A stretch of 64,000 nt of DNA from Nannocystis bainbridge (GTDB lineage: Bacteria > Myxococcota_A > Polyangia > Nannocystales > Nannocystaceae), in assembly GCF_028368995.1 (NCBI RefSeq), contig NZ_JAQNDL010000005.1, positions 256,001 through 320,000 on the forward strand, in the 5' to 3' direction. Below, piece by piece: positions 3,184-59,097 of the stretch. Positions within the stretch are counted from its first letter, which is position 1, and every line of letters starts with the position of its first letter. The position numbers were made by a program, and so were the translations under genes. The notes under the pieces were generated by a model. That model did no database searches and had not been told where the DNA came from. It saw only the letters and a program-made list of their open reading frames with translations.

Positions 3184-4662
3184 ATGATCCCGCTGCGCAC
3201 GCGCCTCGACCTCGCCCCGCTGTTCGTCGCGCTCGGATGGCTGGCGGCCTGCGGCCCGACCAAGGGCGAGACCGAAGCGACCGGCGAGACCACCCAGACC
3301 ACCCAGACCGGCACGACCACCGGCGGCACCACGACGCCGACCACCGGCGAGCCCGTCGCGTGCACCGGCGCGCTGACGCCGTTGATGCAGGCCCACGTCG
3401 AGCCGCCGGCGCCGTCGGGCTACGTGCGCTGCGACGACGGCCTGGTCCACCGGGCCGAGAAGCTCGAGTGCCTGGTGCCCGCGGTCCCCTCGAATTGCCC
3501 GGCCGACGCCTCACCCGGCGAGTGCTTCAGCAATGACGACTGCACCGAGCTGCCCTTCGGGTCCTGTCGCGAGGCGGTCATCCTCGGCGGTCTGGCCGCC
3601 ACCGAGACCGGCGGCACCGGCCCGTCGTGCGCCTGCGAGTACGGCTGCCGCACCGACACCGACTGTCCCGAGGGACAGATCTGCCGCTGCGCCGGCGACG
3701 AGCTCGGCTCGTTCGCCCGCTGCATCGCCGCCGACTGCACCGTCGATGCCGACTGCCCCGGCCAGCTGTGCGCCGTCACCTCGCGCGCATGCTCCGACGG
3801 CCTGATCCGCGCCGCCTGCACCACGCCGCAGGACGAGTGCGCCGGCCCGGCCGACTGCGGCGGCAACCTGTGCGTGCTCAAGGACAGCCGGTGGGCCTGC
3901 AACAACGTCGACTGCGGCCGCCCCTTCATCGTCGACGCCGAGCGGGTGCAGGCGCCGGCGATCGGGCGTGACGACTGGCGCGGCCTGGTCGCCGCCCCCA
4001 CGGCCGCTCCGGCCCTGCGCGCCCGCCTGCGCGACCACTGGACCGCGATCGCCCTGGCCGAGCACGCGTCGATCGCCTCGTTCGCGGCGTTCGTGCTGCA
4101 GCTGCTGGCCGTGGGCGCCCCGCCGGCGCTGGTGAGCGACGCCCAGCGCGCGCTGGCCGACGAGATCGAGCACGCGCGGATCGCCTTCGCGCTGGCCAGC
4201 CTGTACGAAGGGACAGGTATCGGCCCGGGCCCGCTGGCGATCGGTCGGCCTCGCCTCGCGGGCGACGTCGACGCGGTGGTCGCCGCCGTGATCGCCGAGG
4301 CGTGCGTCGCCGAGACGCTCGCCGGGCTCGAGCTGCGCGAGGCCGCGGCCCACGCCGTGGACCCGGCCCTGGCCCGCACGCTGGCGCGGATCGCCGCCGA
4401 CGAGGCGCGCCACGCCGAGCTCGGCTGGCGCTTCGTCCAGTGGGCCCTCGCCGAGGCCGGCGCCGATCGTCAGCGCGCCGAAGCCTGCTTCGCCGCGGCC
4501 GTGGCCGACGCAGAGTCTGTTCTTCAGGACATGTCCCAAAGCCCAGGCTCTCCCGAGCTCCGCGGTCACGGCGTCGTCGACCCCCCGCTGCGCGCCGCGG
4601 TGTGGCGCCGCGGACTCGCCGACCTGGTGCGGCCGACGGCCGCGAGGCTGTGCGCGGCCTGA
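3184..4662 (+). CDS. Cys-rich lipoprotein with C-terminal ferritin-like domain
   Basis: Lipobox LAAC, repeated CxxDxDC units, then CGRPF and EHASIASF / DEIEHA / DEARHA di-iron-type ExxH motifs. Confidence 0.82.
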   Translation: MIPLRTRLDLAPLFVALGWLAACGPTKGETEATGETTQTTQTGTTTGGTTTPTTGEPVACTGALTPLMQAHVEPPAPSGYVRCDDGLVHRAEKLECLVPAVPSNCPADASPGECFSNDDCTELPFGSCREAVILGGLAATETGGTGPSCACEYGCRTDTDCPEGQICRCAGDELGSFARCIAADCTVDADCPGQLCAVTSRACSDGLIRAACTTPQDECAGPADCGGNLCVLKDSRWACNNVDCGRPFIVDAERVQAPAIGRDDWRGLVAAPTAAPALRARLRDHWTAIALAEHASIASFAAFVLQLLAVGAPPALVSDAQRALADEIEHARIAFALASLYEGTGIGPGPLAIGRPRLAGDVDAVVAAVIAEACVAETLAGLELREAAAHAVDPALARTLARIAADEARHAELGWRFVQWALAEAGADRQRAEACFAAAVADAESVLQDMSQSPGSPELRGHGVVDPPLRAAVWRRGLADLVRPTAARLCAA

Positions 4663-4697
4663 CCGGCGCCGACCGAATTGGCCCGCCCGGAACAGCC

Positions 4698-5222
4698 ATG
4701 AAGAAGCGCATCGATCCGCGGCAGCTGCAGGCCCACGCGCAGCGCGGCAGCCCGCGGATGCCCGAGCCGGTCGCCGCCTATCGCCGCAGCTCGCGGCGGG
4801 GCGACGGCGGCGACGACCCGTTCCCGCACGGCCGTTACTGCCTCGGCTTCGAGCTCCCGCGCGCCAGCGATGCCTGCGAGATGCGGGTCCGCGACCTGTA
4901 CCGCGCGCTCGTCCCCTGGCTCGCCCACGAGCTCGTCGAGCGGCCGCAGCCGTGGATCGATCTTCTCGCGCTCGTCGACGAGCTGGTGCGCCGCGAGGAC
5001 GACTGGTACGCCTGGGCCGCCCCGTGGCCGCTGGCCGACCTGCGTCGCGTCGTCGACGACGTCGCCGTCCTCATGACCGAGCAGCCGGGCCCGTGGGCGC
5101 GTCACCGGCTCGGCGACATCGACGAACCGCACCTCGCTCGCAAGTTCACCGACTTGCAGCGGGACCTCGCCGCGCACGCCTCCGACGTCTCCGAAGTCCT
5201 GGTCAACGTCCACTGGTGGTAA
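4698..5222 (+). CDS. Hypothetical protein
   Basis: ATG at 4698, host-like codon usage, fills the gap between two genes. Confidence 0.6.
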   Translation: MKKRIDPRQLQAHAQRGSPRMPEPVAAYRRSSRRGDGGDDPFPHGRYCLGFELPRASDACEMRVRDLYRALVPWLAHELVERPQPWIDLLALVDELVRREDDWYAWAAPWPLADLRRVVDDVAVLMTEQPGPWARHRLGDIDEPHLARKFTDLQRDLAAHASDVSEVLVNVHWW

Positions 5223-5339: not shown

Positions 5340-8762
<3,423 letters not shown>

Positions 8763-9739: not shown

Positions 9740-10825
9740 TTGGCGACCGCCGACGATCCCCCGGCCTCCGCCCGCGCCTGGCTCGCGTGCCTCGGCCTCC
9801 TCGCCCTTGCGATCGCCGCCTCGTTCTATTTTTACGGCCTCGGCACCGGCGGCGGCTTTTATCACCGCATCGCCCTCGCCCCGCTCGCGCCCGCCGAGCA
9901 CGCCCCTTACTACCGCGAGTCGCTGCTGCACGTCGGCCTCGCCCATCTGCTCGGCCTCACCGGCAGCGTCGAATGGTTTCGCCTGTTCGTCCTCTGCGGC
10001 TTCTGGCTCGGCCTCGCCCGCCTCCTCGCCGTCGCCGCGCGCCGCCTCGCTCTCGCCGACCTCGTCCTCGTCCTCGCCGTCGCCGTCGCTCATCCCACCG
10101 CGATGATCGCCCACGCCTGGACCTGCCATCCCGACGCCTTCACCTACCTCCTCGCCCTCCTCCTGCTGTTCGCGCGCAGCCCCGCCGCCGCCTTCGTGCT
10201 CGGCTTCCTCGGCGCCTGGAACCACCTGCCGATGTGGCTCCTCCTCTGCGCCGACGCCATCGTCCTGTGGTTCACCTTCGCCGAGCCGCGCGCGCGTCCG
10301 CGGGCCCTCGCGCTCGCGCTCGGTTGCATCCTCGGCGCCGTCACCATCAAGCTCGCTCTCCACCTCGCCGGCGTCACCCTCGCCGAGGACCGCTTCGCCG
10401 CCGCCGCTCGTCATCCGCTGCCGGTCCTCGTCGGCTACTGGACCGACGCCGGCTGGCCCATCGTCTACACCCTGCATTTCGCCCACCTCGTGTGGCTGCC
10501 CGCGCTGCTGCTCGCCCTGCGCCGCCTCGCCCCGTGGGCCGCTCTCGGCTTGCTCGTCACCCAGGCGCTCGCTCTCGGCGCCACCTTCTTCACCGAGGAC
10601 ACCACGCGGGTGTTCGCCTGCCTCGCCGGCCCGCCGCTGCTCTACGCCCTCGTGCGCGCGCTCGAGCTCCGCCCCCTGCCTCGCGCATCGTTCCTGCGCC
10701 CGCTCGTGCTCGCCGGCGTCCTCGTCACCCTCGTCGCGCCCAAGTTCTTCGCCTGGAAGGGTCGCCTCCACGACCTCGAGCCAGCCCGCGCCCACCTGCG
10801 CAGCTTGCTCGCGTCGAAGCCCTGA
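9740..10825 (+). CDS. Polytopic membrane protein (possibly GT-C-like); start uncertain
   Basis: About 9-10 hydrophobic segments; TTG at 9740 chosen because the ORF-track extension overlaps the upstream gene. Confidence 0.7.
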   Translation: MATADDPPASARAWLACLGLLALAIAASFYFYGLGTGGGFYHRIALAPLAPAEHAPYYRESLLHVGLAHLLGLTGSVEWFRLFVLCGFWLGLARLLAVAARRLALADLVLVLAVAVAHPTAMIAHAWTCHPDAFTYLLALLLLFARSPAAAFVLGFLGAWNHLPMWLLLCADAIVLWFTFAEPRARPRALALALGCILGAVTIKLALHLAGVTLAEDRFAAAARHPLPVLVGYWTDAGWPIVYTLHFAHLVWLPALLLALRRLAPWAALGLLVTQALALGATFFTEDTTRVFACLAGPPLLYALVRALELRPLPRASFLRPLVLAGVLVTLVAPKFFAWKGRLHDLEPARAHLRSLLASKP

Positions 10826-11000: not shown

Positions 11001-11311
11001 CGATCGCGCCGCCCTACTCGTCGGCTGCGGCTTCCCGGACCCAACCCCTTCTTCGCGACCGCGCGCCGACGACCTCTAACAATTTTTTTCACGCCCCCGG
11101 GAAGATGCCGCCTGCCCGGCGTTGACCCGGCGAACCAGGACGCCGCCCCGCCGACCGCCGTGTCGCCAGCCGGCCGACCCTTGCGCGCTCGCACAGCAGC
11201 GCCGCGTACGACCTCGACCCGCGCCTGTGCGCGGCGTTCGGCGGCCGCCGGGGAACGTGTCCCTTTCACCATGTCCCATACAACATGTCCAAAAGACCAC
11301 GAGCTATCGTC

Positions 11312-13117
11312 ATGAACCAGCGCATCCTCATCCCCGCCGCCGTCCTCCTCGCCTTCCCCCTCGCCTGTGACGACCCCGACGACCTCCAGGCCGACGAGGC
11401 CCTCGAGATCGACAGCGGCGACGACGAGCCCGGCGTCGGCGCCACCGACGGCTTCGACCTCACCACCGCCCTCGAGCCGCAGACCATCGTCGGCGGCGGT
11501 CCGGCCAGCGAGGGCGAGTATCCCTTCATGGTCTCGGTCCAGACCTCCGGCGGCAGTCATTTCTGCGGCGGCAGCCTGGTCGCCCCGCAATGGGTCCTCA
11601 CCGCCGCCCACTGCGTCAACGGCACCAGCCCCGCCAGCATCCGCACCGTCATCGGCCGCACCGACCTCGCCTCCGCCTCCGGCGAGATCCGCAACGTCGT
11701 CCAGATCGTCGTCCACCCGCGCTACAACACCGAGGCCGGCGACCTCGACAACGACCTCGCGCTGCTGGTCCTGTCGTCGCCTTCGACGCGCACCCCGATC
11801 GAGCTGGCCGCCCCGCACTCCGGCAGCGACCGCGCCTCGTGGATGCCGAACGTCCTGGCCACCGTGATCGGCTGGGGCGCGCTGTGGGAGGGCGGGCCCG
11901 GCACCAATCACCTGCAGGAGGTCCAGGTACCCGTGCTGACCGACACCTACGCCGCCCAGCCCAGCGTCTACGGCGGCCGCTACAACCCCGCGGTCCACGT
12001 CGCCGCCGCGCCGACCCTCGGCGGCCAGGACTCCTGTCAGGGCGACAGCGGCGGCCCGCTCCTGGCCTGGACCGCCACCGGCCTGCAGCAGTTCGGCGTC
12101 GTCAGCTGGGGCGATGGTTGCGCCCGCCGCGACAAGCCCGGCATCTACACCAAGATCTCCAGCCAGCGCCTGCACCGGTGGTTGCGCTCCGTCATCCACG
12201 AGACGCCCGCCGTCGGCGACTTCAACGGCGACGGCCGCGACGACATCCTCACCTTCACCCACGGCGACTCGGTCGGCGGCCCGCTCGACGTCTACGTCGC
12301 CCTCTCCAACGGCAGCAGCTTCGGCGCCGGCCAGCTATGGCACGACTGGTGGGCCCACCGCGGCCACGTCGGCGCCGTCGGCGACTTCAACGGCGACGGC
12401 CGCGACGACATCTGGGCCTTCAGCGACAGCCAGGTGTGGGTCGGTCTGTCGCGCGGCTACGACTTCAACGGCACCGTCTACACCAGCAGCGCCGGCACCA
12501 CCGACCCTGACGACATCGGCCGCGTCGCCGACGTCAACGGCGACGGCCGCGACGACGCCGTCCTGTTCGCCGCCGACGGCACCGGCGACGTCCACGTCAT
12601 GCTGTCGACCGGCTCGGGCTTCGGCGCCAGGACCAAATGGCACGAGTACTTCGCCCCCGAGGGCGAGACGCCGATGCTCGCCGACTTCAACGGCGACGGC
12701 CGGGCCGACCTCGTCACCTTCACCCAGAGCATGAACGGCGCCCAGGCCGTCGTCGCCCTCTCCAACGGCTCGAGCTTCGGCGCCGCCGCGGTGTGGAACA
12801 GCTGGTTCGCCCCCGCCGGCGAGGTGCCCGCGGTCGGCTACTTCAACACCGACGCCCGCGCCGACATCGCCGTCTTCGACCGCAACTACGGCGCCTACGT
12901 CGGCCTCTCCAACGGCGCGAACAACTTCGCCTCGGCCCTGTGGACCTCGTCCTTCGGCGACTGGAACGACACCCTCACCACCGGCGACGTCAACGGCGAC
13001 GGCCGCGACGACCTCATCGCCTTCACGCAGGACCAGAACGCCGACGTGTGGGTCGCCCTCTCCAACGGCGCCGGCTTCGGCGCCTCGTACATCGCCCACA
13101 ACTACTTCGCGCCGTAA
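11312..13117 (+). CDS. Trypsin-family (S1) serine protease lipoprotein with FG-GAP/VCBS repeats
   Basis: IVGG, LTAAHC, DLALL and GDSGGP triad motifs; repeated GDFNGDGRDD; lipobox PLAC. Confidence 0.95.
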   Translation: MNQRILIPAAVLLAFPLACDDPDDLQADEALEIDSGDDEPGVGATDGFDLTTALEPQTIVGGGPASEGEYPFMVSVQTSGGSHFCGGSLVAPQWVLTAAHCVNGTSPASIRTVIGRTDLASASGEIRNVVQIVVHPRYNTEAGDLDNDLALLVLSSPSTRTPIELAAPHSGSDRASWMPNVLATVIGWGALWEGGPGTNHLQEVQVPVLTDTYAAQPSVYGGRYNPAVHVAAAPTLGGQDSCQGDSGGPLLAWTATGLQQFGVVSWGDGCARRDKPGIYTKISSQRLHRWLRSVIHETPAVGDFNGDGRDDILTFTHGDSVGGPLDVYVALSNGSSFGAGQLWHDWWAHRGHVGAVGDFNGDGRDDIWAFSDSQVWVGLSRGYDFNGTVYTSSAGTTDPDDIGRVADVNGDGRDDAVLFAADGTGDVHVMLSTGSGFGARTKWHEYFAPEGETPMLADFNGDGRADLVTFTQSMNGAQAVVALSNGSSFGAAAVWNSWFAPAGEVPAVGYFNTDARADIAVFDRNYGAYVGLSNGANNFASALWTSSFGDWNDTLTTGDVNGDGRDDLIAFTQDQNADVWVALSNGAGFGASYIAHNYFAP

Positions 13118-24865: not shown

Positions 24866-24959
24866 CCGCATGCCCCTTCGGTCATGCCTTCAAGAACATG
24901 ACCGTGAGAACATGTCCCCGAGAACATTACTACAAGAACATGTCCTCACGGACATGTCT
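24866..24959. repeat. 14-bp-period TGTCC-N4-GGACA lattice (7 nodes)
   Basis: CATG (one CATT) at 24869, 24883, 24897, 24911, 24925, 24939 and 24953; overlaps the kinase-WD40 stop codon. Confidence 0.92.
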
Positions 24960-27900
24960 TCACATACAGCCGGTCGCCGAAGTCGTGCGCCCACTCGGCC
25001 GGCGTCAGGTCGCGACCTGCCCGCGCGCAGGCCTCGGCCAGGCGGCCTGCCAGCGTCGCCGGGAACACCCGCGCCAGCCCGTCGGCGCCCGCCGTCACCA
25101 CCAGCGCCCCGTCGCTCGAGAACCCTCCCGACCACAGCCTGCGATCGTGCTCGCCGGGCCCTGCCGCTGGCGTATGCGGCAGTCGCAGCGCCACCAGCCC
25201 CTCCGGGCGGCGCGACCACAGGCGCGCCGAGCCATCGGCCGACGCCGTCAGGATCGCCGCGCCGTCGGGGCTGTACGCCGCGATCCACACCGCGTCCGTG
25301 TGCCCGCGCAGCGTCACCGGCTCCCCGCCGTCGAGCGGCCACTCGCAGGCCGTCCCGTCCGTCGAGGCCGTCAGCGCCGCCAGCCCGTCGGGCCGCAGCT
25401 GGACCTGACCTATCGACCCCGCGTGGCCGCGCAGCACGATCGGCGCCGCCTCGGGCCGGGCCAGCGACCACACCCGCGCCACCGCGTCGTCGCCCGCGCT
25501 GGCCAGCAGCTCGCCGTCGACCGCCAGCGCCCGCACCGGGCCCGCGTGGCCTTGCAGGCTGGCCTTGCGGACCGTCGCCCCGGCCAGCGGCGTCACCCGC
25601 ACCGGCCCGTCGTCGCCGGCGCTGGCGACGGCTGTCCCATCGGACATGAACTGAAGCACCCGCACCGCCCCCGCGTGGGCGGCCACCTCGTCGAGGCTGG
25701 GCGGCCCGACCGGCGGGAAGCGGACCACGTGGACCCGGCCGTCCTCGCCGGCGACCGCCGCCAGCTCGCCCGCGGGGCTCCAGCGGGCGTCGAGGAGCGC
25801 CGCCCCGCGCGGCGCCGTGAGGCTGGCCAAAAGGACAGGTTCGGCCCCGCTCAGCGACCACAGGCGCAGCCGCCCGTCGCTGCCCACCGTCAGCAGCCGC
25901 GCGCCGTCGGGGCTGGCCGCCAGCGCCGTCGAGGCCCCCTCGCGGTGGCCGCCCAGCCGCGTCGAAGCCCGGCCGTCGCGCGGCCACACCCGCGCCGCGC
26001 CGTCGAGCCCGGCGGTCACCACCGTGCGCCCGTCGGCCAGGAACGCGGCCTGCTCGATCGCCGCCGCGTGCCCGCGCAACAGCCACGGATCGTCCGCGAT
26101 CCGCCAGCGGCGCGCGCTGCCGTCGACCGACGCCGTCAGCACCCGGGCGCCGTCGCGCGAGAAGCTGGCCGCCACCACGCTGCCGGCGTGGCCGCGCAGG
26201 CGCAGCGGCGGGCCGCGCACGCCCGGCTGCCACAGCCACGCCTCGCCGCCCGCGGGGGTCCCGAGCAGCAGATCGCCCGCCGGCCCGACCTGGACCCCCA
26301 GCAGCGCCTCCTCGTGGCCCTGCAGCTCGATCCGCGCGCTGCTGCCGTCGCGCTGCCACACCCGCGCGCTGCCGTCCCGCGACACCGTCACCACCTGCTG
26401 CCCGCCGGGCCGGTACGCCGCCGCGTAGACCTCGTCGGTGTGCCCCACCAGCCGCTGCGGCGGCCCGCCGTCGACCGGCACCAGCGCCGCCGTGTGATCG
26501 GCGCGCGCGACCACGATCTCCTGCCCGTCCCCGCGCCACGTCGCCGCCAGCAGCCCCGTCGCCCCGCGAGCGGCCGGCGGCGGCAGCTTGAGCGCGCGCG
26601 CCGGACCGGCCGCCGCGGGCCACAGCCGCGCCGTCCCGTCGCCGCTCAGCGTCAGCAGCGTCGCCCCGTCGGGGCTCCACAGCGCCCGCCGCAGCGGGTC
26701 GCTCGCCTCGCCCAGCGGCTGCGGCGGCTGCCCCGGGCGCAGCACGTGCACCCGCGGCCCGTCGCGCACGACCAGCGCCTCACCTGTCCCCCAGGCCAGG
26801 TCGCGCGGATCGGTCGTCGGCAGCTCCCAGCACGTCGGCGCCCCCAGCCCGCCGACCGGCGTCAGCGCGTGCACGCACGGCCGATCGCCGGCGCGCGCGA
26901 TCGCCAGCGCCGCCCCGCCCGGCGCGAACGCCAGGGCCCGCGCGCTGCCTGTCCCCAAGGCCACGTCGAGCGGGGCCCGCGGCGCCGCCGTCGACCACAG
27001 CGCCACCGCCCCCTCGCGCTCCCCGGTGGCCAGCCAGCGCCCGTCGTCGCTCTCGGCCAGAGCGTCGACCACCCCCCCGCCCGGGCGGGCGAACCGGTCG
27101 CTGCGCGGCCCGTCGAGCGCGTCGAGCAGCGCCTGCTCCACCTCGAGCGGCGGCGCCTCCCCGCGCGCCTGCGCCGTCGCCACCGCCGCCACCGCCAGCA
27201 GCTGCCGCAGCGCCGGATCGGCGCCCGCCTGTTGACCCGCCGCCGCCGCCAGCCGCCGCGCCTCCCCGGCCGCCTGCGTGCGCGCGTCCTCGGCCGCGAT
27301 CGCGGCCGCCCGCACCTCCTCCGCCGCCGCGTCGGCCGCGTGGCGCTCCGCGAGCTGCTGCCAGGTCACCAGCGCCCCGCCGAACAGCGCCGCCAGGGTC
27401 ACCAGCCACAGCCCCAGCCGCCGGCGCAGCCGGCTCGGGTCGCGGCCGAGCGCCTCCAGCAGCGCGTCCATGCTCGGCCAGCGCGCGGCCGGATCGGCCT
27501 GCAGCCCGCGCTCGACCGCCCGCTGCAGCCAGCCCGGCACCTCGCGTGCGCCGCGGACGATCGCCCCGGCCACGATCGCCGCCTGCACCTCCTCGCGCCG
27601 CTCGCCCGCGAACGGCCGCACCCCGTGCAGCGCCTCCTGCAGCGCCGCGCAGAACCCGAACACGTCGCTGCGCGCGTCGCCCTCGCCGCCCGCGTGCTGC
27701 TCCGGCGCCACCGCCGTCGGCGCCGCGACCGCGTCGCCCGGCCGATCGGTCTTGATCGACATGCCCATACGGACATGTTCTTTGGGACCTTCCCCTTCGG
27801 GCATGCTCTGCGGGACAGACGCAGCGCGGACCCGGGCCAGCCCGAAGTCGACCACCCGCGCCCGGCCGTCGTCGCCGACCAGCACGCTCTCGGGCTTGAA

Positions 27901-29060: not shown

Positions 29061-29096
29061 TGCTATTCTGATTCGGAATGCTCGAGCATCGAGGAC

Positions 29097-30230: not shown

Positions 30231-30361
30231 CCCGCTGTCAAGTAAGTAAAATTCCTGATGTCCAGATAAGACCAGGAATGCAGTTCTGCCATGGCGAAAG
30301 ATTTGCGCCGGTCGTCGGTGTAAGCTTGACGGGCGAACGATGGAAGGCCCTATTATAGGGT

Positions 30362-30808: not shown

Positions 30809-30889
30809 GAGTACAACCTCAACTCGGACGCGCCGCATGCGTCGACGAGCCTCCCCCCGCCTAGGGAGCTGCCGAGCGCAGCAACCCGG

Positions 30890-35505: not shown

Positions 35506-37644
35506 TCACCCCGTCCGCTTCTTCTCGGCCGCGCGCATGCCCTCGACGCGCCACGCGAACTCGAGCTCGAGATCGGCCCCGGCGCCGCCCGACTCGTACG
35601 CGATGCGGCCCTCACGATCGAGGAACCATGTCGTCGGGAAGCTATTCAACCCGGCGCGCTCGCAGTACCCGTCGCTCATCGCCACTCCGAAGCGCTGCGG
35701 GTGCGCGGCCAGCCACGTGCGCACCTCCTCGGCCGAATCGATCGCGTGCACGCTCAGCACCACCACGTCGCGCGCCCGCGCCTGCGCGTCGACGAACGCC
35801 TGCCAGCGCGGCAGCTCCTCCACGCACGGCCCGCAGGTCGTGAACCAAAAATGCAGCACCACCAGCTTGTCGCGCACCGACGCGCTGCTGACGACCTCGC
35901 CGTCGAGCCGGGTGAAGCGGAACTCCGGCGCCGGCTTCGGCGCCGCGGCGATCGCCGCGAACACCTGCTGCCGCCGCGCCTCTCGCACCTGCGCCAGCAG
36001 CTTGGCCGCGTGCCCGTCGAAGCCGCCCAGTTCGCCGTGCGCTCGCTGCCACGCCGCCGTCAGCCCGCGCCAGCACGCGTCCTCGCCCGGCTCGCCCTCG
36101 CTCTCGTCGCTGCAGGCCATCAGCAAACGATCGGCCGCCGCTGCGTCGCCGCGCAGCCGCGCGACCTCGGCCTGCGCCAGCGTGTGATCGTCGCCCTGGC
36201 GGCCGCGCCGGGTCGCCTCCGCCAGCGCTGCCTCGCCATCGGCCAGTCGCCGCTCGCCCAGGCGCACCCGCGCCAGCAGGTCGTAGAGCGCGCCCTCGAG
36301 CCAGCCCTTCAGCCCGTCGAAGCTGTGGCCCCTGGCGTTGGCCGCCGCGAGCTCGCCGGCGACCGCCGCCAGCCCCTCGCGCACCAGCGCCTCCGCGCGC
36401 GCCGGCTCGGCCCCGCGATCGGCCAGCGCTCGCGCGGCAGCGCCGAAGAACTCGAGCTGCTGCCGGTGCACGCGCGGCCGCGTCGCCTCGATCGCCGCCA
36501 CCACCTGCGTCGCCGTCGCGGCCGGGTCGGCGACCGTCGCCGCGAACTGCCGCAGCGCCGCCGCCTCGCGCAGCAGCGGATCGTGATGACGCGGCCGGGC
36601 CAGGAACGCCGCGTCGGCGGCCCGCTGCGCCGCTGCCTCGGCCGCCGTCAGCCGCGCGTGCGCATAAGGACCGCCCCCGAGCGCCTCGTCGCGGGCCGCC
36701 TGCACCGCTTCGGCCGCCGGCGAGTCGGCGAACTCCGCGACCACGCGGGCCTCGAGCGGCTCTGCCAGCGCGTCCTCGCCGATCGAACGGTACGCCTCGG
36801 CCGCCGCCCGCAGCAGCCCCGGTCGCGGGTCCGCGGCCGCCAGCGTCGCCGAGATGTCCTCGAGCACAGCTCGCTTGTTGGCCGCCGTATCACCGGGCTG
36901 CATCGAGAGCAGCTCCCACCGCTGCTGCCGCAGCCGCAACGACCCCGGCGCGCGCTCCAGGCCGCGGTCGACCCACGCCAGCGCCTCGGTCAGCCGCCAC
37001 GCCCGCGCCAGCCCCTCGCCGACCAGCGCCGCCGTCGTCACGAATTCGGGGTCACCCGGCCGGACCGCGTGGGCGTCGGCCAGCGCCTGCGGCACCAGCG
37101 TCGGATCTCCGCGCGCCCCCCCGAGCCGCGCCACCGCCCGCGCCCACGCCGGCGCCTGCGGGTACGCGGCCACCAGCGCCGTCAGCTCGTCGCTGCGGCC
37201 CCACTTCGCCAGCGCCGCCGCGCGCAGCCGCAGCGCGTCGGGGTGGCCCGCCAGCGCCTCGACCAGCGCCGCCGTGTCCGCGAGTCGATCGGCCCGGGCC
37301 GGCGCCGACTCCTCGTACCACACCGCCGCGCGCGCCCACTGGCCCCACGCATCATCTGGCCTTTCGGACACCCACCGATCGGCCAGCGCCGCCGCCTCGA
37401 GGTTGCGCCCCGTCCGCGCCACGCAGGCGAGCCACCACGCCCGCAGCCTGCCGCTGGCAGGGTGATGCTGCAGCTGCGCCTCGCCCTCGGCCGCGCAGCG
37501 CTCCCCCTCGTCCGCGGCCAGCAGCGCCCGCAGCCGGTCGGCCGCGCCCTCGGCCGGATCGTCGACCTGGGCCTCGCGCTCGCGCGCCGGCATCGGAGCC
37601 CGCGACGAGCAGCCGACGAGGCCCAGCGCCAATGCCAGAGACAT
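35506..37644 (-). CDS. Lipoprotein with TPR-like repeats and TlpA-like thioredoxin domain
   Basis: Lipobox LVGC; APEFRFTRLDG...FWFTTCGPCVEELP...SFPTTWFLDREG. Confidence 0.88.
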   Translation of the reverse strand: MSLALALGLVGCSSRAPMPAREREAQVDDPAEGAADRLRALLAADEGERCAAEGEAQLQHHPASGRLRAWWLACVARTGRNLEAAALADRWVSERPDDAWGQWARAAVWYEESAPARADRLADTAALVEALAGHPDALRLRAAALAKWGRSDELTALVAAYPQAPAWARAVARLGGARGDPTLVPQALADAHAVRPGDPEFVTTAALVGEGLARAWRLTEALAWVDRGLERAPGSLRLRQQRWELLSMQPGDTAANKRAVLEDISATLAAADPRPGLLRAAAEAYRSIGEDALAEPLEARVVAEFADSPAAEAVQAARDEALGGGPYAHARLTAAEAAAQRAADAAFLARPRHHDPLLREAAALRQFAATVADPAATATQVVAAIEATRPRVHRQQLEFFGAAARALADRGAEPARAEALVREGLAAVAGELAAANARGHSFDGLKGWLEGALYDLLARVRLGERRLADGEAALAEATRRGRQGDDHTLAQAEVARLRGDAAAADRLLMACSDESEGEPGEDACWRGLTAAWQRAHGELGGFDGHAAKLLAQVREARRQQVFAAIAAAPKPAPEFRFTRLDGEVVSSASVRDKLVVLHFWFTTCGPCVEELPRWQAFVDAQARARDVVVLSVHAIDSAEEVRTWLAAHPQRFGVAMSDGYCERAGLNSFPTTWFLDREGRIAYESGGAGADLELEFAWRVEGMRAAEKKRTG

Positions 37645-38079
37645 GACCCTTCGAACAGGTGTTCTTCGCCGCATCATCCGTCACTCCTCGCCCTGACACC
37701 TCGCGTGCCCCATGGTCTCGTCGCCCGCGAGCGAGCGCTGGCGCCGAGGACATGTCCCTTCGGACAGGTGATCGCCGCGGCGTCACCCGCCCCTCCCGGG
37801 CATGGCGTCGGCCGAGCAACCGCGACGATGGCAGGCCGCTGCATTCCGCCGCTTCACACCGACCCAATGGGAGCCACGCCTCGAGCTCCCTCCCGTCACG
37901 CGCGACCACCCCGGCACTCTACCTCAGTTCGCCGCCGACCACCGCTCGCTCGAGATGTCGAGCCGTCTTGCCGTGCGTGGTCGGTCAGGAGGTCGAGACG
38001 CCGTTGCTCCGCGAGCCCGCCGTCGATCGGCACAGACACGCCGGAGCGGGCGCCCGGCGGGCGATCGCCGTACCGCCGC

Positions 38080-46296: not shown

Positions 46297-47943
46297 TTGA
46301 GTCGATCGAGCCTCGCCATCGACCCCGCGAATCGGCACCTCATCGAGCTGTTGTCGGGCATCTCCTCGGGCCTCGCCTCGGTCAACGACCTCGGCAGCTT
46401 CGCGCAGGAGATCGGGCGCGCGCTCGATCAGCTGTGCGACGCCGAGTACATCGCGCTGTACCTGTGGGACTTCGATGCGCGGCGGCTGCGGACCTTCGCC
46501 GGCCGCGGGTTCTCGCCGGCCGAGGTCGCCGAGGCCGAGCGCACCGCGTGGGACCGCCACCCCGGCAGCGTCTTCCGCGAGCCGCGGCTGCTGCACGTGC
46601 CCGACGTCTTGCTCGACCAGGACCAGCAGACCCAGAACAGCGCCCGCAGCTTCGTCGTGCGCGCGCGCCTGTTCATGCCGGTGATGTGCCGCGACGAGGT
46701 GCTCGGCGTGATCGGCCTCGCCTCCGGCACGCCCAACCGCTTCACCGACGGCGACATCGCCGTGCTCGGCTTCATCAGCAAGCTCACCGGCGTCGTCTAC
46801 CGCCAGCTGCTCGATCGCACCCAGCGGCAGCGCGCCGAGAGCTCGCTCGCCACCACCGCGCGGCGCCTCCAGCTCGTCGTCGACGCGCTCCCGATCGCCC
46901 TCCTCAGCCTCGATCCTGGCTCGCGCCGGATCTCCCTCGCCGAGGGCGCCGGCCTGCGTCAGCTCGGCCTCGACCCCGCAGCTTGCCTCGGCGCCGTCGC
47001 CGACCACGCCCTCGCCGGCTTCCCCGGCCTCCGCGACGCCGTCCAGCGGGCCGCCGTCGGCGACGCCATGGCCGAGCAGCTCGCCATGGGCGAGCGCGTC
47101 ATCTCGTTCCAGTCGGCCCCTCACCGCGGCGGCGAGCTGACCGTCCTGCTGTTCGACATCACCGACCTGCGGCGCGCCCTCGACGAGCTCACCCTCGCCA
47201 ACAGCGACCTCGAGCAGGCGCGCGACCAGGCGCTCGAGGCCACGCGGGCCAAGAGCTCGTTCCTCGCGGCGATGAGCCACGAGCTGCGCACCCCGCTCAA
47301 CGCCATCATCGGCTACACCGAACTGCTGCTCGAGGAGCACGCCGAGCTCGCCTCGCCCGGGTTCGCCGCCGACCTCGAGCGCGTCGCCTCGTCGGCGAGG
47401 CACCTGCTCGGCCTCATCAGCGACGTGCTCGACCTCTCGAAGATCGAGGCCGGCAAGTTCGCCCTCCACCCCGAGGACATCGACCTCGGCGCCCTGCTCG
47501 GCAGCATCGACGCCGCCTGTCGCCCCGGCCAGCAGCGCCGCGGCAACCGCTTCGTCCTCGACGTCCCCGAGCCGCTGCCGGCCCTGCACGCCGACGCCAC
47601 CGCCGTGCGCGGGATCCTCATCAACCTCCTCGGCAACGCCCACAAGTTCACCCAGCACGGCACCGTCACCCTGCGGATCCGCGAACACACCGAGGCCGGC
47701 GCCCGCCGGATCGTGTTCGTCGTCGAGGACACCGGCATCGGCATGAGCGAGCCGCAGCTGCGCCGGATCTTCGACAACTTCACCCAGGCCGACGCCTCGA
47801 TCTCCCGCCGCTTCGGCGGCACCGGCCTCGGCCTCGCCATCTCCCTCAACTTCGTCCAGCTGATGGGCGGCGACATCTCCGTCACCAGCGCCCCCGGCGT
47901 CGGCTCGGCCTTCACGTTCTGGCTGCCAGCCGGTAAGTCATAA
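46297..47943 (+). CDS. GAF-domain sensor histidine kinase
   Basis: FLAAMSHELRTPLNAIIG, NLLGNAHKFT, DTGIG, GGTGLGLAI. Confidence 0.95.
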   Translation: MSRSSLAIDPANRHLIELLSGISSGLASVNDLGSFAQEIGRALDQLCDAEYIALYLWDFDARRLRTFAGRGFSPAEVAEAERTAWDRHPGSVFREPRLLHVPDVLLDQDQQTQNSARSFVVRARLFMPVMCRDEVLGVIGLASGTPNRFTDGDIAVLGFISKLTGVVYRQLLDRTQRQRAESSLATTARRLQLVVDALPIALLSLDPGSRRISLAEGAGLRQLGLDPAACLGAVADHALAGFPGLRDAVQRAAVGDAMAEQLAMGERVISFQSAPHRGGELTVLLFDITDLRRALDELTLANSDLEQARDQALEATRAKSSFLAAMSHELRTPLNAIIGYTELLLEEHAELASPGFAADLERVASSARHLLGLISDVLDLSKIEAGKFALHPEDIDLGALLGSIDAACRPGQQRRGNRFVLDVPEPLPALHADATAVRGILINLLGNAHKFTQHGTVTLRIREHTEAGARRIVFVVEDTGIGMSEPQLRRIFDNFTQADASISRRFGGTGLGLAISLNFVQLMGGDISVTSAPGVGSAFTFWLPAGKS

Positions 47944-47949
47944 AAGACT

Positions 47950-48125
47950 GGACTTGCCCCATCGGGCATGTCCCATGGTGCATGTCTTGGAGAGCATGTC
48001 GCTCCGAACATGCTCTAGAGCGCATGTCCCCGGGGACATGCGCTCTATCCGGCTCCGACCCTTCGACGCCATCGGCCCACACTCGTGCGACAAGCGCCTT
48101 CGAGCATGCCTTTAAAAGCATGCTC
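47950..48125. repeat. 14-bp lattice (7 nodes plus a 2-node satellite) between convergent genes
   Basis: Nodes at 47953 (CTTG), 47967, 47981, 47995, 48009, 48023 and 48037; then 48105 and 48119. Confidence 0.92.
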
Positions 48126-48683: not shown

Positions 48684-49160
48684 ATGAATTTCGCACCGCA
48701 GAAGCAACACCAGTGGCTGCAGCAGCTCATCGGCGAGTGGACCTACGAGACCGACCCCTCGGTCGACCCCGGCCCGGGCGGAGCCAGCCGCGGCCGCGAG
48801 ACCGTGCGCGCGCTCGGGGACCTGTGGATCGTCGCCGAGGGCAGCGGCGATCAGCCCGGCAGCAGCCCCGGCGCCTCGCTGATGACCCTCGGCTACGACG
48901 CGCAGAAGGAGCGCTTCGTCGGCACCTGGGTCGGCGCGACGATGCCTCACCTGTGGGTCTACGAGGGCTCGCTCGACGCCAGCGGCCGGCTGCTCAACCT
49001 CGACAGCGAGGGCCCGGCGATGTCGGGCCAGGGCCTCGGGAAGTACCGCGACGTCATCGAGCTCGTCAGCCCGGACCACCGGATCTTCTCGGGCAACGCG
49101 CTGCGGCCCGACGGCTCGTGGCAGCCGCTCATGCGCACGCACTACCACCGCGTCCGCTAG
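48684..49160 (+). CDS. DUF1579-family protein
   Basis: PQKQHQWLQQLIGEW...MTLGYDAQKERFVGTW; AAGGAG RBS. Confidence 0.88.
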   Translation: MNFAPQKQHQWLQQLIGEWTYETDPSVDPGPGGASRGRETVRALGDLWIVAEGSGDQPGSSPGASLMTLGYDAQKERFVGTWVGATMPHLWVYEGSLDASGRLLNLDSEGPAMSGQGLGKYRDVIELVSPDHRIFSGNALRPDGSWQPLMRTHYHRVR

Positions 49161-49211
49161 CCTCGCGCCTGCGGCCTCGCGCGGCCGGCATCGCGCGCTC
49201 GTGCCGGGGAG

Positions 49212-49288
49212 CGACATGCTTCTCGGGACATGCCTCATCGGGCATGTCCTCATGCGCATGACCACACGGGCATGTCCAAACGGACACC
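49212..49288. repeat. 14-bp lattice (6 nodes)
   Basis: CATG at 49215, 49229, 49243, 49257 and 49271; CACC at 49285. Confidence 0.92.
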
Positions 49289-50805: not shown

Positions 50806-50807
50806 TC

Positions 50808-50884
50808 GCGCATGCCCTTCAGGACATGTCCGTTCGCGCATGCTCATGAGGACATGCTCCATCGAGCATGTCCCCATGGACATC
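50808..50884. repeat. 14-bp lattice (6 nodes) filling a convergent intergenic gap
   Basis: CATG at 50811, 50825, 50839, 50853 and 50867; CATC at 50881. Confidence 0.92.
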
Positions 50885-50889
50885 CCGCC

Positions 50890-52722: not shown

Positions 52723-52729
52723 CGCCTCA

Positions 52730-54005: not shown

Positions 54006-54026
54006 GTGCGCTTGGCTCACCGCGTG

Positions 54027-54503: not shown

Positions 54504-54536
54504 CAGGCTCAGAAGCGGCCATCGTCGCGCGGCGCA

Positions 54537-54602
54537 CCGCATGTCCTCGCGAACATGTCCTCCTGGACATGGACATCGGGACCTGCTCGCTCGAACATGT
54601 CC
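54537..54602. repeat. 14-bp lattice (5 nodes) between convergent genes
   Basis: Nodes at 54540, 54554, 54568, 54582 (CCTG) and 54596. Confidence 0.9.
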
Positions 54603-54682
54603 CGAGGTCACCAGCGCCAGCGCTCGAGATCGCGGCTCACGCCCGCCCGCGCGTGCTCCAGGCCGGGCGCTCCCGAGCCGCC

Positions 54683-56218
54683 CTACCCTGACGCGTGGAC
54701 CTGCAGCTCGCCCACGCCCTGGTACGTCCCGTAGAGCGTCGGCGACGTGAAGATCCGGACCGCGTAGGTCCCCTTCGCCAGCGGCCCGCACGACACCGCC
54801 ACGTCGCGCGTCCCGGTGACCTCGCACTCGACCGCCGCCGCGCTGTCCTCCGGGACAGCCTTGACGATCAGGTTGCGGCCGCGCGGGTTGTCGAGGCTCA
54901 GCGTGAACTCGCGCTGCACCGTCACCTGCGAGCGGCGGGGCTCGACCAGCTGCAGGCCGTCGGCGAAGAACTTGGGCCGCATCATCGGCTGGCGGGCGAA
55001 CTCGCCGCGGGACAGCGGCTGCTCGCGCAGCTGCCAGGCCGGCTCCTCCGGGAAATGCGTCACCCCGATCAGCGCCGGCGGCACGAACAAATAGTCGGAG
55101 CGGTACTCGCGGACGAACGCGCCGTCCTTGAGGTGACCCGAGTCCCACGTGGCGTCGATGAGGTACCAGCGGCCGTCGATGCGCGCGGCGTTCCACGCGT
55201 GCGACTCGCCCTCGACCTCGCGCGACAGCCCGCGCGCGTCGCCGACGACGACCACCACCTCGTCGCCGGTGACCGCCGCGATCGCCCGCATCAGGTTGGC
55301 GTAGCCGGCACACACGGCCAGGCGCGCGGCGAACACCGCCTCGGCGCGCTGGTCGGGGTAGACGTCGCGGTTCAGGTACGACGCGGCGTCGTAGGCGAGG
55401 TGGGTGGCGACGAAGTCGTGGATAGCCTTGATCCGGCGCGCCGGGTCGGGCTCGCTGGCGGCGAGGTGACGGCCGACGGTGTCGATGCTGGTGCGCGCCG
55501 CGTCGGGCATCGCCAGCACCGCCGGGTGGAGCTCCGCCGGCGACGGCCATGCCGGGCCATTCACCGCGACCACGGGCTCGCTCGCGGGCGCGGGCTCGAC
55601 CTCCGGCGTCGGCGTCGGCTCGGCGCCCGTGGGCACGGGCGTCGGCTGCGGCGGCCGCTGCCACGGGTCACGCCACGCGTCGTCCTCGGCGGGCGCCGGC
55701 TGCGGCGCCGGAGCCTCGGCCGGCCGGGTCTCGATCAGCCCCTCGTACTCGTTGTCGTGGGCCGCCTCGTACAGCCACTGCAGGCCGTCGGCCGCCCGCA
55801 GCAGCCCGGCGCGGGCGCGGCCCGTCAGCGGGTGCTGCACGCCCTCGAGGAACCAATCGCCGCGCGTCGAGATCGCCGTGAACACCGCCTCGGGCCGCGA
55901 CCACAGCAGCGCCGTCAAGAACGCCAGGTTGACCACCAGCGTGCGCAGCACGATCCGGTCCCACGTCGTCAGCACCCGCCGGTCGCGCTGCGAGCCCCGG
56001 CGCAGCAGCCGGGACAACATGTCCCAAGCGACAGGTACGATCGGGAACAGCAGCAGGCCCGCGACGCACACCAGCCACACCGGCCCGTTGCGGTAGGCCG
56101 CCAGCGACGAGGCGACCCACACCCCGAGGGCCGGCGCCACCACCACCACGGCCGCCCAGATCGCGCGAAGAAGCCAGAATAACAACGTTCCGAGCCAGCT
56201 CAGCCGCGCACGCGTCAT
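54683..56218 (-). CDS. Membrane-anchored transglutaminase-like domain protein
   Basis: N-terminal TM helices; VCAGYA, SHAWNA and IDATWD Cys-His-Asp triad. Confidence 0.9.
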   Translation of the reverse strand: MTRARLSWLGTLLFWLLRAIWAAVVVVAPALGVWVASSLAAYRNGPVWLVCVAGLLLFPIVPVAWDMLSRLLRRGSQRDRRVLTTWDRIVLRTLVVNLAFLTALLWSRPEAVFTAISTRGDWFLEGVQHPLTGRARAGLLRAADGLQWLYEAAHDNEYEGLIETRPAEAPAPQPAPAEDDAWRDPWQRPPQPTPVPTGAEPTPTPEVEPAPASEPVVAVNGPAWPSPAELHPAVLAMPDAARTSIDTVGRHLAASEPDPARRIKAIHDFVATHLAYDAASYLNRDVYPDQRAEAVFAARLAVCAGYANLMRAIAAVTGDEVVVVVGDARGLSREVEGESHAWNAARIDGRWYLIDATWDSGHLKDGAFVREYRSDYLFVPPALIGVTHFPEEPAWQLREQPLSRGEFARQPMMRPKFFADGLQLVEPRRSQVTVQREFTLSLDNPRGRNLIVKAVPEDSAAAVECEVTGTRDVAVSCGPLAKGTYAVRIFTSPTLYGTYQGVGELQVHASG

Positions 56219-56862: not shown

Positions 56863-56976
56863 GGTGCACCTCCCGAGGAGTCATACGCCGGGGCGACGGC
56901 CGGGCAACCGCAAGTCATGCGTGCCAGCGGCCTCGAGCGGACGCGAAGGCCTCGCGCGCCGCTCGCCCGGGCTGTC

Positions 56977-59097
56977 TCATCGGCCAGGTGATGCCGGCGC
57001 GATGACGACCTCGGCCTTGAGGATGCGGTCGCCGACCACCAGCGCCAGGGCGGCCGGCAGGCCGTCGCGGACCTCGCCGACGTGGGTGTAGCGGCCGTCG
57101 AGGTGCGGGGCGCGGGCGTGCATGATGAAGAATTGACTGCCGCCGGTGTCCTTGCCGGCGTCGGCGATGCCCACGGCGCCGCGCGCGAATGGAGCGGCGC
57201 CTGGCTCCGAGGGCAGGGTGAACCCCGGACCGCCCCAGCCGGTGCCGCCGGGGTCGCCGCCCTGGACGACGTAGCCGGGCACGACGCGATGGAACGTCAG
57301 GCCGTCGTAGAAGCCGCGCTGGGTCAACGCGACGATCGCCGCCACGTGCCACGGCGCGGCCGCGGGCGCGAGCGCCACGTCGACGCGGCCGCGCTCGGTG
57401 TGCAGCCGCCACAGCAGTTCACGGCCGAGCACCGGCGACGGATCGTGCAGCGGCAGCGGGACTTCGCGGCCGGGCCCGTTGACGCCGGGATCTTCGCCGG
57501 CGATCGCCTTCACGCAGGCGCGGGCCGCCGCGCGCACGCTGGCGTTCACGTCGGTGAGCGCGGCGCGACAGACCGGCAGCCCGCGCGCCCCGCCGACCTC
57601 GGCCAGCGCGCCCGCGAGGCCGGCGAACAGCTCGCCGTCGCGTTCGCCCGCGGCCCGCTCGACCAGCGCGTCGACGATCGCCGGCGCCTCCGGCCGCGGC
57701 GCGTCGCCGGCGAAGCGCCCCTGGACCGCCTCGGCCGCGGTGCCCACGACCGCCGGCGAGCTGTCCCGAAGGCCAGCCGCGATCAGGCCGCCGAGTTCGA
57801 GCGCGTCCCACTGCCGACCCGCCGCCGCCAGCGTGGCCGCCCGCACCCGCGGATCGTCGCTGGCCGCCAGCGCCGTCAGTCGGGCCGCCCGCGCCGGCCC
57901 GCCGAAGCCCTGGCCGAGCAGACCTGCCTCGAAGGCCAGCCGCTCGAGGTCCGCCGCCGCCCCGACCGCCTCGGCGCAGCGCAGCGGCGGCCGCCACTCG
58001 CCCGCGCGGGCCGCCAGCGCCGCCAGCCCGCACGCCAGCCGCGCCTGCACCCGCCGCGCCTCCGGCCGCGCCGCCGCCAGCCGGGCCTCGGCGCGCGCGT
58101 GGGCCTCGGCGGCCCCGGGCAGGACGTCCTTGCCGGCTGTCACGATGGACATGGCCTCGAGGACAGGGTGTCCAGAACCTGTCCCATCGAACATGTCCTT
58201 TTGTTCAAGCTCGGCGCGCAGCCAGTCCCACAGCGCCGCGGTCGCGGCCGGCTCGGCCAGCTCGCCGAGACCGCGGACCGCCGCCACCCGCACCCACGGA
58301 TCGGCGTCGCCGAGGCCCGCGCGCAGGGCCGCCAGCGCCTGCGGGGGCCGGTGCCGGGCCAGGCCCTTCAGCGCCAGCGCCCGCACCTCGGGCTCGGCCG
58401 CCGCGGCCGCACGCACCAGCGCCGCCGCGCCCGGGTCGATCGCCGCCTCGCGCACCGGCGCTGCTACCTCTGCGTCGGGCTTCGCCGCGGGCGCGTGGGC
58501 CAGCCCGTAGACCGCCGCGTAGACCCGCCGCGGATCGCCCTCGCCCGCCATCGCCACCAGCCCGGCGCGGGCCGCCTCATCGAGCGGCAGCCCGCGCCGA
58601 CCGAGGATCCCCAGCACGATCGCCGCCGCCTCGCGCACCGCCGGCGCCTCCTCGGGTCGCAGCGCCGCGGCCAGGCGCGCGCTCGCGGCCCCGCTGCCGA
58701 GCCGCCGCATCGCCAGCACGATCGCCAATCGCTCGTCCGCCCCCGCCGCCGGCCACCGCTGCCACACGGCGTCCTCGAACCGCGCCACCTCGGACCCGAG
58801 CGCCCCGGCGACGTCGAGCGCGCGCATGGCCGCCGCCCGCGTGGCCGCGTCGGGGCTCGCCAGCAGCGCGTCGAGCCGCGTCAGCGCGACCGCGTCGCCG
58901 ATCCGCCCGAGCCCCTCGATCGCCGCCGGGTTCGCCTCCGTGGCCAGCCGCGCCAGCTCGGCCGAGCCGCCCTCGCGCCGCGCCTCGAGGCGAGCGAGCG
59001 CGAGGCCCGGATCGTCGCCGCCGTCCGGCGGTCCCGACGGCCGCGCGCACCCGGCCACCAGCGCGATCGACAGCAGGAAGGAGCGCGGAGCCAGCAT
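56977..59097 (-). CDS. HEAT-repeat lipoprotein with cyclophilin-type PPIase
   Basis: Lipobox VAGC; GFYDGLTFHRVVPGYVVQGGDP, GKDTGGSQFFI, PHLDGRYT. Confidence 0.93.
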   Translation of the reverse strand: MLAPRSFLLSIALVAGCARPSGPPDGGDDPGLALARLEARREGGSAELARLATEANPAAIEGLGRIGDAVALTRLDALLASPDAATRAAAMRALDVAGALGSEVARFEDAVWQRWPAAGADERLAIVLAMRRLGSGAASARLAAALRPEEAPAVREAAAIVLGILGRRGLPLDEAARAGLVAMAGEGDPRRVYAAVYGLAHAPAAKPDAEVAAPVREAAIDPGAAALVRAAAAAEPEVRALALKGLARHRPPQALAALRAGLGDADPWVRVAAVRGLGELAEPAATAALWDWLRAELEQKDMFDGTGSGHPVLEAMSIVTAGKDVLPGAAEAHARAEARLAAARPEARRVQARLACGLAALAARAGEWRPPLRCAEAVGAAADLERLAFEAGLLGQGFGGPARAARLTALAASDDPRVRAATLAAAGRQWDALELGGLIAAGLRDSSPAVVGTAAEAVQGRFAGDAPRPEAPAIVDALVERAAGERDGELFAGLAGALAEVGGARGLPVCRAALTDVNASVRAAARACVKAIAGEDPGVNGPGREVPLPLHDPSPVLGRELLWRLHTERGRVDVALAPAAAPWHVAAIVALTQRGFYDGLTFHRVVPGYVVQGGDPGGTGWGGPGFTLPSEPGAAPFARGAVGIADAGKDTGGSQFFIMHARAPHLDGRYTHVGEVRDGLPAALALVVGDRILKAEVVIAPASPGR
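58147..58209. repeat. 14-bp lattice inside the HEAT/PPIase CDS
   Basis: Nodes at 58150 CATG, 58164 CAGG, 58178 CCTG, 58192 CATG and 58206 CAAG; locally AT-richer codons. Confidence 0.8.

Follow-up and report, generated by a model that had tools for sequence, protein, structure and literature searches.

In this study, we analysed a 64,000-nucleotide stretch of the genome of Nannocystis bainbridge (contig NZ_JAQNDL010000005.1, positions 256,001 to 320,000; hereafter the window), in which short palindromic sites recur in a 14-bp lattice, both between genes and in frame inside them. The copies inside coding sequences (CDSs) are kept by constraint at the nucleotide level, and the motif is essentially confined to Nannocystis. 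We regard it as evenly balanced whether the in-gene lattice is a Nannocystis-specific dispersed 14-bp repeat held under DNA-level constraint and read by a putative dimeric factor on duplex DNA. An initial annotation of the window had listed six in-frame lattice stretches inside CDSs and had proposed that they override codon bias, that they arise by point substitution rather than by insertion, and that either DNA-level selection or a mutational footprint lies behind them.

Repeat unit, phasing and distribution

The repeat unit was the 14-bp palindrome TGTCC-N4-GGACA, a 5-4-5 arrangement. The 11.05-Mb genome (five contigs) contained 1987 copies, against 13 for the swapped order. The window (G+C 72.4%) contained 14, against 0.04 expected, and this number was reached in 0 of 100 shuffles. 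Half-sites GGACA and TGTCC in the same orientation showed spacing peaks in the window only at 14, 28, 42 and 56 bp, and those in opposite orientation at 5+14k (GGACA then TGTCC) and 9+14k (TGTCC then GGACA). The same pattern was found across the whole genome, where same-orientation pairs at 14 to 84 bp numbered 1321, 637, 587, 296, 152 and 117, over a background mostly in the tens (maximum about 125). Abutting units form GGACATGTCC at their junctions, and this junction had 956 genomic copies, against 0-48 for control palindromes. Since 1145 of the 1987 units (58%) occurred in isolation but only 196 of the 956 GGACATGTCC junctions did, the 5-4-5 palindrome is the primary unit and the nodes of the lattice are junctions of abutting units. 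The spacer preferred YYRR (consensus yyRGGACATGTCCyr / TGTCC-YYRR-GGACA), and the lattice therefore amounts to the 7-mer RRGGACA in alternating orientation.

Nodes were scored, in nats, with a position weight matrix trained on the neighbours of perfect junctions. With this matrix, 3868 arrays of at least two nodes were found in the genome and 106 in the reversed genome. Arrays of 2 to 7 nodes numbered 2351, 617, 371, 266, 190 and 54, and 19 were longer; the typical maximum was about 6-7 units. Strong nodes numbered 6177, or about 0.56 per kb.

The pattern TGTCCNNNNGGACATGTCC was present in 11 of 11 Nannocystis genomes, with 163-311 copies in the large assemblies and fewer in the fragmentary ones. 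It gave 0-1 matches in 30 genomes of other genera, and the reversed control gave none. A strict two-unit pattern, searched in one genome for each of 185,579 species, matched 49 loci, of which 32 belong to Nannocystis, 14 to Mesorhizobium and 3 are singletons; in viral contigs it matched 0 loci. A pattern of three perfect junctions returned 0 loci in the searched genome contigs. The source names of the closest proteins likewise belonged to the genus Nannocystis. Literature searches on myxobacterial repetitive extragenic palindromes (REPs), on the junction 10-mer and on palindromic or intergenic repeats of Nannocystis found no description of the repeat.

The Mesorhizobium matches (L147-L193, about 14 species) were a near-perfect 44-bp palindrome, made of a C-run, two TGTCC/GGACA units and a G-run, with unrelated flanks; one contig carried two copies 67 bp apart. 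This looks like a separate dispersed hairpin repeat, its core shared by chance or convergence. Papers in which the junction 10-mer recurs deal with p53 sites, and the likeness of the junction to a p53 half-site was treated as a coincidence.

Copies inside coding sequences

We called genes with a home-made and crude tool based on codon usage, which gave 8102 genes covering 84% of the genome. By these calls, 1295 of the 3868 arrays lay wholly in CDSs, 2170 were intergenic and 403 straddled a CDS edge. We resampled synonymous codons three times in 5757 high-confidence CDSs (8.0 Mb), with every protein sequence preserved. The observed sequence contained 1090 in-CDS arrays, whereas the resampled ones contained 113, 84 and 99, a difference of about tenfold. 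The strong nodes in the three reading frames numbered 1000, 382 and 177, against about 760, 20 and 1 after resampling, the latter two frames being codon-unfriendly. The G+C content at third codon positions (GC3) was 0.662 within in-CDS arrays (11,592 codons) and 0.946 overall, and it recovered within about 6 codons. These results uphold the proposal that the lattice overrides codon bias.

Conservation was then assessed against five congeners, whose regions syntenic with the window have about 80-90% DNA identity to it. For 50 nodes in codon alignments of 158 genes of contig C5, we counted only codons with an unchanged amino acid. A/T-ending codons with the third base inside a node core were identical in 27/28, 26/30, 16/20, 16/18 and 11/12 cases in the respective relatives (80-96%), while the background for other A/T-ending codons was 31-37% (Fisher p per species 5e-5 to 4e-13). 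G/C-ending codons were 88-97% identical at node cores and 83-86% elsewhere. Amino-acid identity at nodes was below the background (0.65-0.79 versus 0.79-0.83). Both the conservation of rare A/T-ending codons and the large excess of arrays over the number predicted from protein sequence and codon usage place the constraint on the nucleotide sequence and not on the protein. The initial annotation had named unconstrained synonymous positions as a finding that would speak against it; since these positions are strongly constrained, that objection falls away.

As 14 leaves a remainder of 2 when divided by 3, the reading frame shifts from one unit to the next through all three frames, and the super-period is 42 bp or 14 residues (..DMS..GTG(P)..GHV(P)..). 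The 88 in-CDS arrays with at least four nodes showed a recurrent 14-residue period, as in KDMSVGTGASGHGGKDMSA, and the commonest four-residue readings of arrays were xDMS, GTG(P/A/S) and GHV(P/L). In-CDS copies lay mostly in loops and linkers.

All six stretches of the initial annotation were in frame, inside open CDSs with good coding statistics. The host genes are as follows, with families from Pfam.

CDS 3184-4662, plus strand: no Pfam family; hosts 4200-4217 and 4516-4547.
CDS 5340-8762, plus strand: kinase-WD40; hosts 8429-8446.
CDS 24946-28401, minus strand: kinase-WD40; hosts 27760-27819.
CDS 54683-56149, minus strand: transglutaminase-like; hosts 56018-56035.
CDS 56977-59097, minus strand: HEAT plus cyclophilin; hosts 58150-58209.

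The in-CDS sites of the window, with node scores in brackets and their state in the relatives, are listed below. They include the C-terminus KTCP*, which the initial annotation had taken for a lattice node and which is one.

3664..3677, in CDS 3184-4662 (plus): single unit TGTCC-CGAG-GGACA, encoding DCPEGQ; the Cys codon is TGT in the window and TGC in 4 relatives, a synonymous change that completes the half-site.
4200..4217, in CDS 3184-4662 (plus): CTGTAC GAAG GGACAGG, one node (6.2) and an imperfect half-site, the weakest of the six; GAA GGG ACA retained in 4/4 true orthologues.
4511..4538, in CDS 3184-4662 (plus), listed as 4516-4547: strong node CAGGACATGTCCCA (11.0) with weak phased flanking nodes (4.3, 2.7); GAC ATG TCC invariant in 4 orthologues, flanks varying by substitutions only.
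8424..8451, in CDS 5340-8762 (plus): 2-node array (4.3, 5.1), CCTGTCC GTCGA GACAGG; GAG ACA GGT common to 3 aligned orthologues.
24878..24961, at the end of CDS 24946-28401 (minus): 6-node array that begins downstream of the stop and overlaps it and the last codons (KTCP*, AAG ACA TGT CCG TGA); ACA TGT/TGC kept in 5/5 relatives.
25633..25646, in the WD40 part of CDS 24946-28401 (minus): single unit TGTCC-CATC-GGACA, read ATG TCC GAT GGG ACA; GAT GGG ACA identical in 5/5 relatives.
27755..27810, in the kinase activation loop of CDS 24946-28401 (minus), residues about 195-214, listed as 27760-27819: 4 phased nodes (8.0, 11.6, 5.2, 6.7); lattice common to 5 relatives, no indel within the array.
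54844..54857, in CDS 54683-56149 (minus): single unit TGTCC-TCCG-GGACA, read GCT GTC CCG GAG GAC AGC, hairpin z -3.0; rare codon GCT retained in 5/5 relatives.
56013..56040, in CDS 54683-56149 (minus): 2-node array (9.2, 5.8), read GTA CCT GTC GCT TGG GAC ATG TTG TCC; GTA CCT identical in 5/5 relatives.
58145..58200, between the HEAT and cyclophilin domains of CDS 56977-59097 (minus), listed as 58150-58209: 4-node array (8.7, 4.1, 7.8, 11.3) encoding KDMFDGTGSGHPVLEAMS; rare codons GAT, ACA, GGT, CCT and ACA kept in 5/5 relatives and GGA in 4.

In all relatives that provided a usable orthologue (3 to 5 of the 5, depending on the site), the lattice at the six stretches of the initial annotation lay at the same codons and was free of indels. 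Rare codons were shared with the relatives, for example in GAT GGG ACA GGT .. CCT GTC, GTA CCT GTC and GCT GTC, and the differences were substitutions. Some of these sharpen nodes, as do the window-specific changes of CAG to CAT and of AAC AGG TCC to AGC ATG CCC in the activation-loop array. Elsewhere in the same kinase gene the window has lost a two-node site by changes back to common codons (CCT to CCG, TGT to TGC). In codon alignments of 158 genes of contig C5, strong nodes within CDS bounds gave 352 node-by-species comparisons, in which 280 nodes were kept, 50 were weakened, 13 were lost by substitution and 9 lay opposite a gap. The gap rate at in-CDS nodes was thus 2.6% (9/352), and that of random 14-mers was 1.9%. 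We also compared site 58150-58209 among 14 orthologues with identity down to 49%. The motif HPVLEA was invariant and was preceded by 9 or 11 residues, the distant orthologues (49-53% identity) having two more than the window protein. Because the distant orthologues have a segment of near-equal length, the lattice at this site appears, from the protein alignment, to have been written over pre-existing codons. HPVLEA was not found in the out-genus DNA of the loci fetched from G001, G006, G008, G009, G015 and G019. These results show that arrays turn over by clustered substitutions; bounded mobile-element insertions with target duplications were not seen.

Next to the activation-loop array and outside the lattice (about 27700-27760), the window kinase lacks 9 codons that are present in four relatives, and G003 lacks 2. 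The window contains a cluster of paralogous Ser/Thr kinases, mostly kinase-WD40: 5340-8762, 21466-24474 (with TPR repeats instead) and 24946-28401; a further one lies at G000:C5:345329-348740. Two of the paralogues carry a lattice at the same activation-loop position, and a third has a loop of similar length with no clear nodes.

We next examined five long in-CDS arrays. The Lhr helicase carries an array of 6-9 nodes in the linker between its two RecA domains, where congeners have about 5-6 nodes. In G003 exactly 14 residues (42 bp) are missing, more distant members of the genus differ in length, and distant orthologues lack the linker altogether. Length varied between species in three of the four further arrays, namely those in an IucA/IucC synthetase, a SIR2-like protein and L091; in L091, G003 has an insertion of 13 columns. 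The array of a histidine kinase was constant at 159-162 nt across species. Some arrays were near-exact 14-bp or 42-bp tandem copies. Similarity between units of in-CDS arrays was higher at a distance of 3 (0.618) than at 1 or 2 (0.555), an effect absent from intergenic arrays. Long in-CDS arrays occupy variable linkers, and in-frame indels resembling slippage contribute to their change. Since they grow and shrink in this way, and since the Lhr linker is absent from distant orthologues, point substitution is not the sole route, and the interpretation of the initial annotation is partly supported.

The longest array of the genome lies in a tandem gap (G000:C3:1237910-1238190), where 19-20 phased nodes span 280 bp, and 13 of the 21 arrays with at least 8 nodes are on contig C3. 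A gap at G000:C3:1085837-1085949 holds eight near-identical 14-bp tandem copies (GAGGTCATGYCCCT), and a CDS at G000:C3:1347897-1348051 holds a triplicated 42-bp unit encoding AAMSSGTGPFEPVA repeats; the tandem copies at both loci point to recent slippage. In G007 the orthologues of the histidine kinase and of the SIR2-like protein (L134, L139) come as 2-3 matches in different frames, which are either frameshifts or assembly errors (the genome is 80% complete).

Possible reader of the repeat and rival explanations

In convergent gaps, arrays with at least three nodes had a density of 1.99 per kb and were present in 42% of the 1322 gaps; the figures were 0.55 per kb and 13% for tandem gaps and 0.13 per kb and 4.5% for divergent gaps, the poorest class. 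Arrays were located mainly just 3' of stop codons and in convergent gaps, those in tandem gaps lying a median of 20 bp past the upstream stop and 166 bp ahead of the next start. In flank-anchored alignments of intergenic arrays, synteny mostly broke at the gaps, and relatives carried different arrays past the same stop codon. A distribution restricted to a macrodomain was rejected, as all five contigs had 293-424 arrays per Mb.

A conserved reader is implied because the motif is genus-wide and near-absent elsewhere. Acting as a dimer on duplex DNA, this genus-specific factor would read the 5-4-5 palindrome; the phase between neighbouring dimers would be 14 bp, or about 120 degrees of helical turn. 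Sites would persist where binding is tolerated, most in 3' gaps, next in protein linkers and least in promoters. It is also possible, although we lean somewhat against it, that a dedicated sequence-reading system imposes a second, non-protein code chromosome-wide at more than 1000 in-gene sites, dictating codon choice and a 14-residue linker peptide (DMS-GTGP-GHVP); this system might be a dimeric binder polymerising on the 14-bp phased palindromes or a drive that restores the motif.

A serious rival, though an unlikely one, is that the repeat works as a REP-like RNA element. The hairpins would serve as terminators or 3'-end stabilisers, bidirectional between convergent genes, and in-CDS copies would act on mRNA structure or processing. 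The density gradient from convergent to divergent gaps and the position shortly past stop codons both speak for it. Intergenic arrays also folded into 10-14 bp stems with tetraloops (z -4.4 to -7.2), and 0 of 200 shuffles folded as well. One account of REPs (PMC3733652) describes similar placement: downstream of genes, between unidirectional or convergent open reading frames (ORFs), in clusters of alternating orientation and sometimes within genes. However, mirrored covariation between neighbouring nodes was only 3-5 points above shuffles, and the sense strand had no excess of G:U over A:C (ratio 0.90 in CDSs and 1.20 in tandem gaps). The arrays showed no polarity, defined ends or U-tract. Hairpins, moreover, would not need one genome-wide consensus, and in-CDS arrays folded only modestly (z -1.3 to -3.0) yet had tightly kept synonymous sites. 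The weak covariation, the lack of a G:U excess and the modest in-CDS folding favour a reader of the duplex consensus over an RNA role.

Several points weigh against such a duplex reader. The placement 3' of genes and in convergent gaps and the very stable intergenic hairpins fit an RNA or terminator role equally well, and because a palindromic consensus can pair with any neighbour, covariation could be masked. The analysis identified no candidate for the reader protein. The gene calls were home-made, and the synonymous test drew on a small sample (50 nodes from 158 genes, all on one contig), with species that are related and not independent. Synonymous-site conservation would also be expected from a motif-restoring drive without benefit to the host.

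Molecular drive without host function is itself a doubtful explanation. The motif would accrue by point mutation where selection allows, through biased uptake, mismatch repair or conversion, and expand by slippage. This would account for a genus-specific motif with about 0.56 strong nodes per kb that is present in CDSs and 3' gaps, scarce in divergent promoter-bearing gaps, born by substitution, roughly even in density along five contigs and in places copied as near-identical 14-bp and 42-bp tandems. However, no known uptake or repair bias yields 14-bp phased arrays, and a 15-fold excess in convergent over divergent gaps is a large one for tolerance alone to produce. As to the two causes named in the initial annotation, nucleotide-level constraint is supported, while selection and a footprint or drive are not separable by the present data; the sites may persist through either host benefit or drive.

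Bounded mobile elements inserted in frame, of the type of miniature transposable elements with inverted repeats (MITEs), Rickettsia palindromic elements (RPEs) or REPs, are very improbable and already largely contradicted: the Lhr array lies in a linker absent from distant orthologues and node number varies between species in 4/5 long arrays, but conserved termini, polarity and target duplications were not seen, gaps are not enriched at in-CDS nodes, the six sites of the window are free of indels, 58% of units are solitary 14-mers, and a search for the REP-associated tyrosine transposase (RAYT; Y1 transposase, PF01797) gave 0 matches in the window's genome (90.5% complete) and was positive in 6/14 control genomes.

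We class the Nannocystis repeat as a variant of the short dispersed palindromic repeats. Like REPs and the bacterial interspersed mosaic elements (BIMEs) built from them, it is a high-copy short palindrome found downstream of genes and between convergent ones. It differs in that the unit is only 14 bp with 5-bp arms and abuts itself in strict 14-bp register. A REP is an imperfect palindrome of 20-40 bp that forms a stem-loop; in Nannocystis two abutting units give stems of 10-14 bp, with weak covariation between the arms. The Nannocystis consensus has no GTAG or CGTC tag, the genome has no RAYT gene that we could find, and the copies look like independent draws from a consensus and not like copies of masters. 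One third of the arrays lie in CDSs, with synonymous sites conserved.

The DNA uptake sequence (DUS) of Neisseria and the uptake signal sequence (USS) of Haemophilus are lineage-specific motifs of 10-12 bp, at about 1 per kb, that occur in genes and as inverted pairs in terminators and probably build up through point mutation together with some biased process. The Nannocystis motif is similarly lineage-restricted and over-represented in CDSs and in terminator-like inverted repeats, but it is a palindrome with tandem 14-bp phasing, and we know of no uptake bias in Nannocystis. The highly iterated palindrome HIP1 of cyanobacteria is also over-represented in coding and non-coding DNA, born by substitution and able to skew codon choice; it differs in being an 8-mer without phased arrays or a strong preference for 3' gaps. 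Regulators of the CRP/FNR type bind 5-4-5 sites, and omega or ribbon-helix-helix (RHH) repressors bind heptad arrays, contiguous short repeats in alternating orientation. The Nannocystis repeat has the same 5-4-5 geometry, and its alternating contiguous repeats could seat one dimer per unit. Those operators, however, are few and lie at promoters, whereas the Nannocystis sites number thousands, are not concentrated in promoter regions and avoid the divergent, promoter-bearing gaps, and no such protein is known to be linked to them. Finally, RPEs are palindromic repeats translated in frame inside unrelated proteins, according to a review (PMC10969869), and the Nannocystis repeat is translated in this way too. 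An RPE is a bounded insertion of about 150 bp, in contrast to the indel-free overwriting of existing codons at the window sites and to the 14-residue steps of the long arrays.

If the duplex-reader explanation is correct, the repeat offers a clear-cut example from nature of a code at the nucleotide level that prevails over a very strong codon bias (GC3 0.95) at more than 1000 coding sites and shapes protein linkers, with rare codons conserved across species as its measurable signature. As the genus is culturable, what reads short dispersed palindromes, and whether they persist by host benefit or drive, can be put to experiment; the motif is sharp, phased and abundant, and so suits affinity capture, chromatin immunoprecipitation and 3'-end mapping. 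Gene callers and codon-based expression predictors will misjudge array stretches, and the arrays are likely hot spots for in-frame changes in the length of kinases, helicases and other enzymes.

Edge and intergenic arrays of the window

The window contains 20 arrays, of which 6 are in CDSs, 1 is on a CDS edge and 13 are intergenic. The following edge and intergenic arrays were recorded.

11251..11292: 3-node intergenic array between CDS 9740-10825 (plus) and CDS 11312-13117 (plus).
37637..37664: 2-node array that includes a possible ATG at 37644 of the minus-strand gene ending at 35506; node centred at 37644 (9.2).
47948..48045: 7 intergenic nodes in the convergent gap that follows CDS 46297-47943 (plus); folding energy as RNA -56.6 kcal/mol, z -6.2; relatives have other arrays at this position.
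49210..49279: 5-node intergenic array 3' of CDS 48684-49160 (plus); fold z -5.4.
50806..50889: 6 intergenic nodes that take up the whole convergent gap 50805/50890; fold z -4.4.
54535..54604: 5 intergenic nodes, within the convergent gap 54503/54683.
59778..59805: intergenic pair of strong, abutting nodes; the ATG of ORF 59798-60793 (plus) comes from the second.
61667..61736: 5-node intergenic array directly 3' of CDS 60259-61662 (plus); two perfect hairpins, -55 kcal/mol, z -7.2.

The initial annotation had suggested that the likely start codon at 37644 is itself a lattice node. The node is present, and this ATG is one of three candidate starts of the gene, beside ATG 37677 (from the list of ORFs) and 37593 (from our own caller).

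At 29001-31000 the window has a low-GC island (0.53-0.55, against about 0.72 around it) with no strong gene call and no lattice arrays, which may be acquired DNA.

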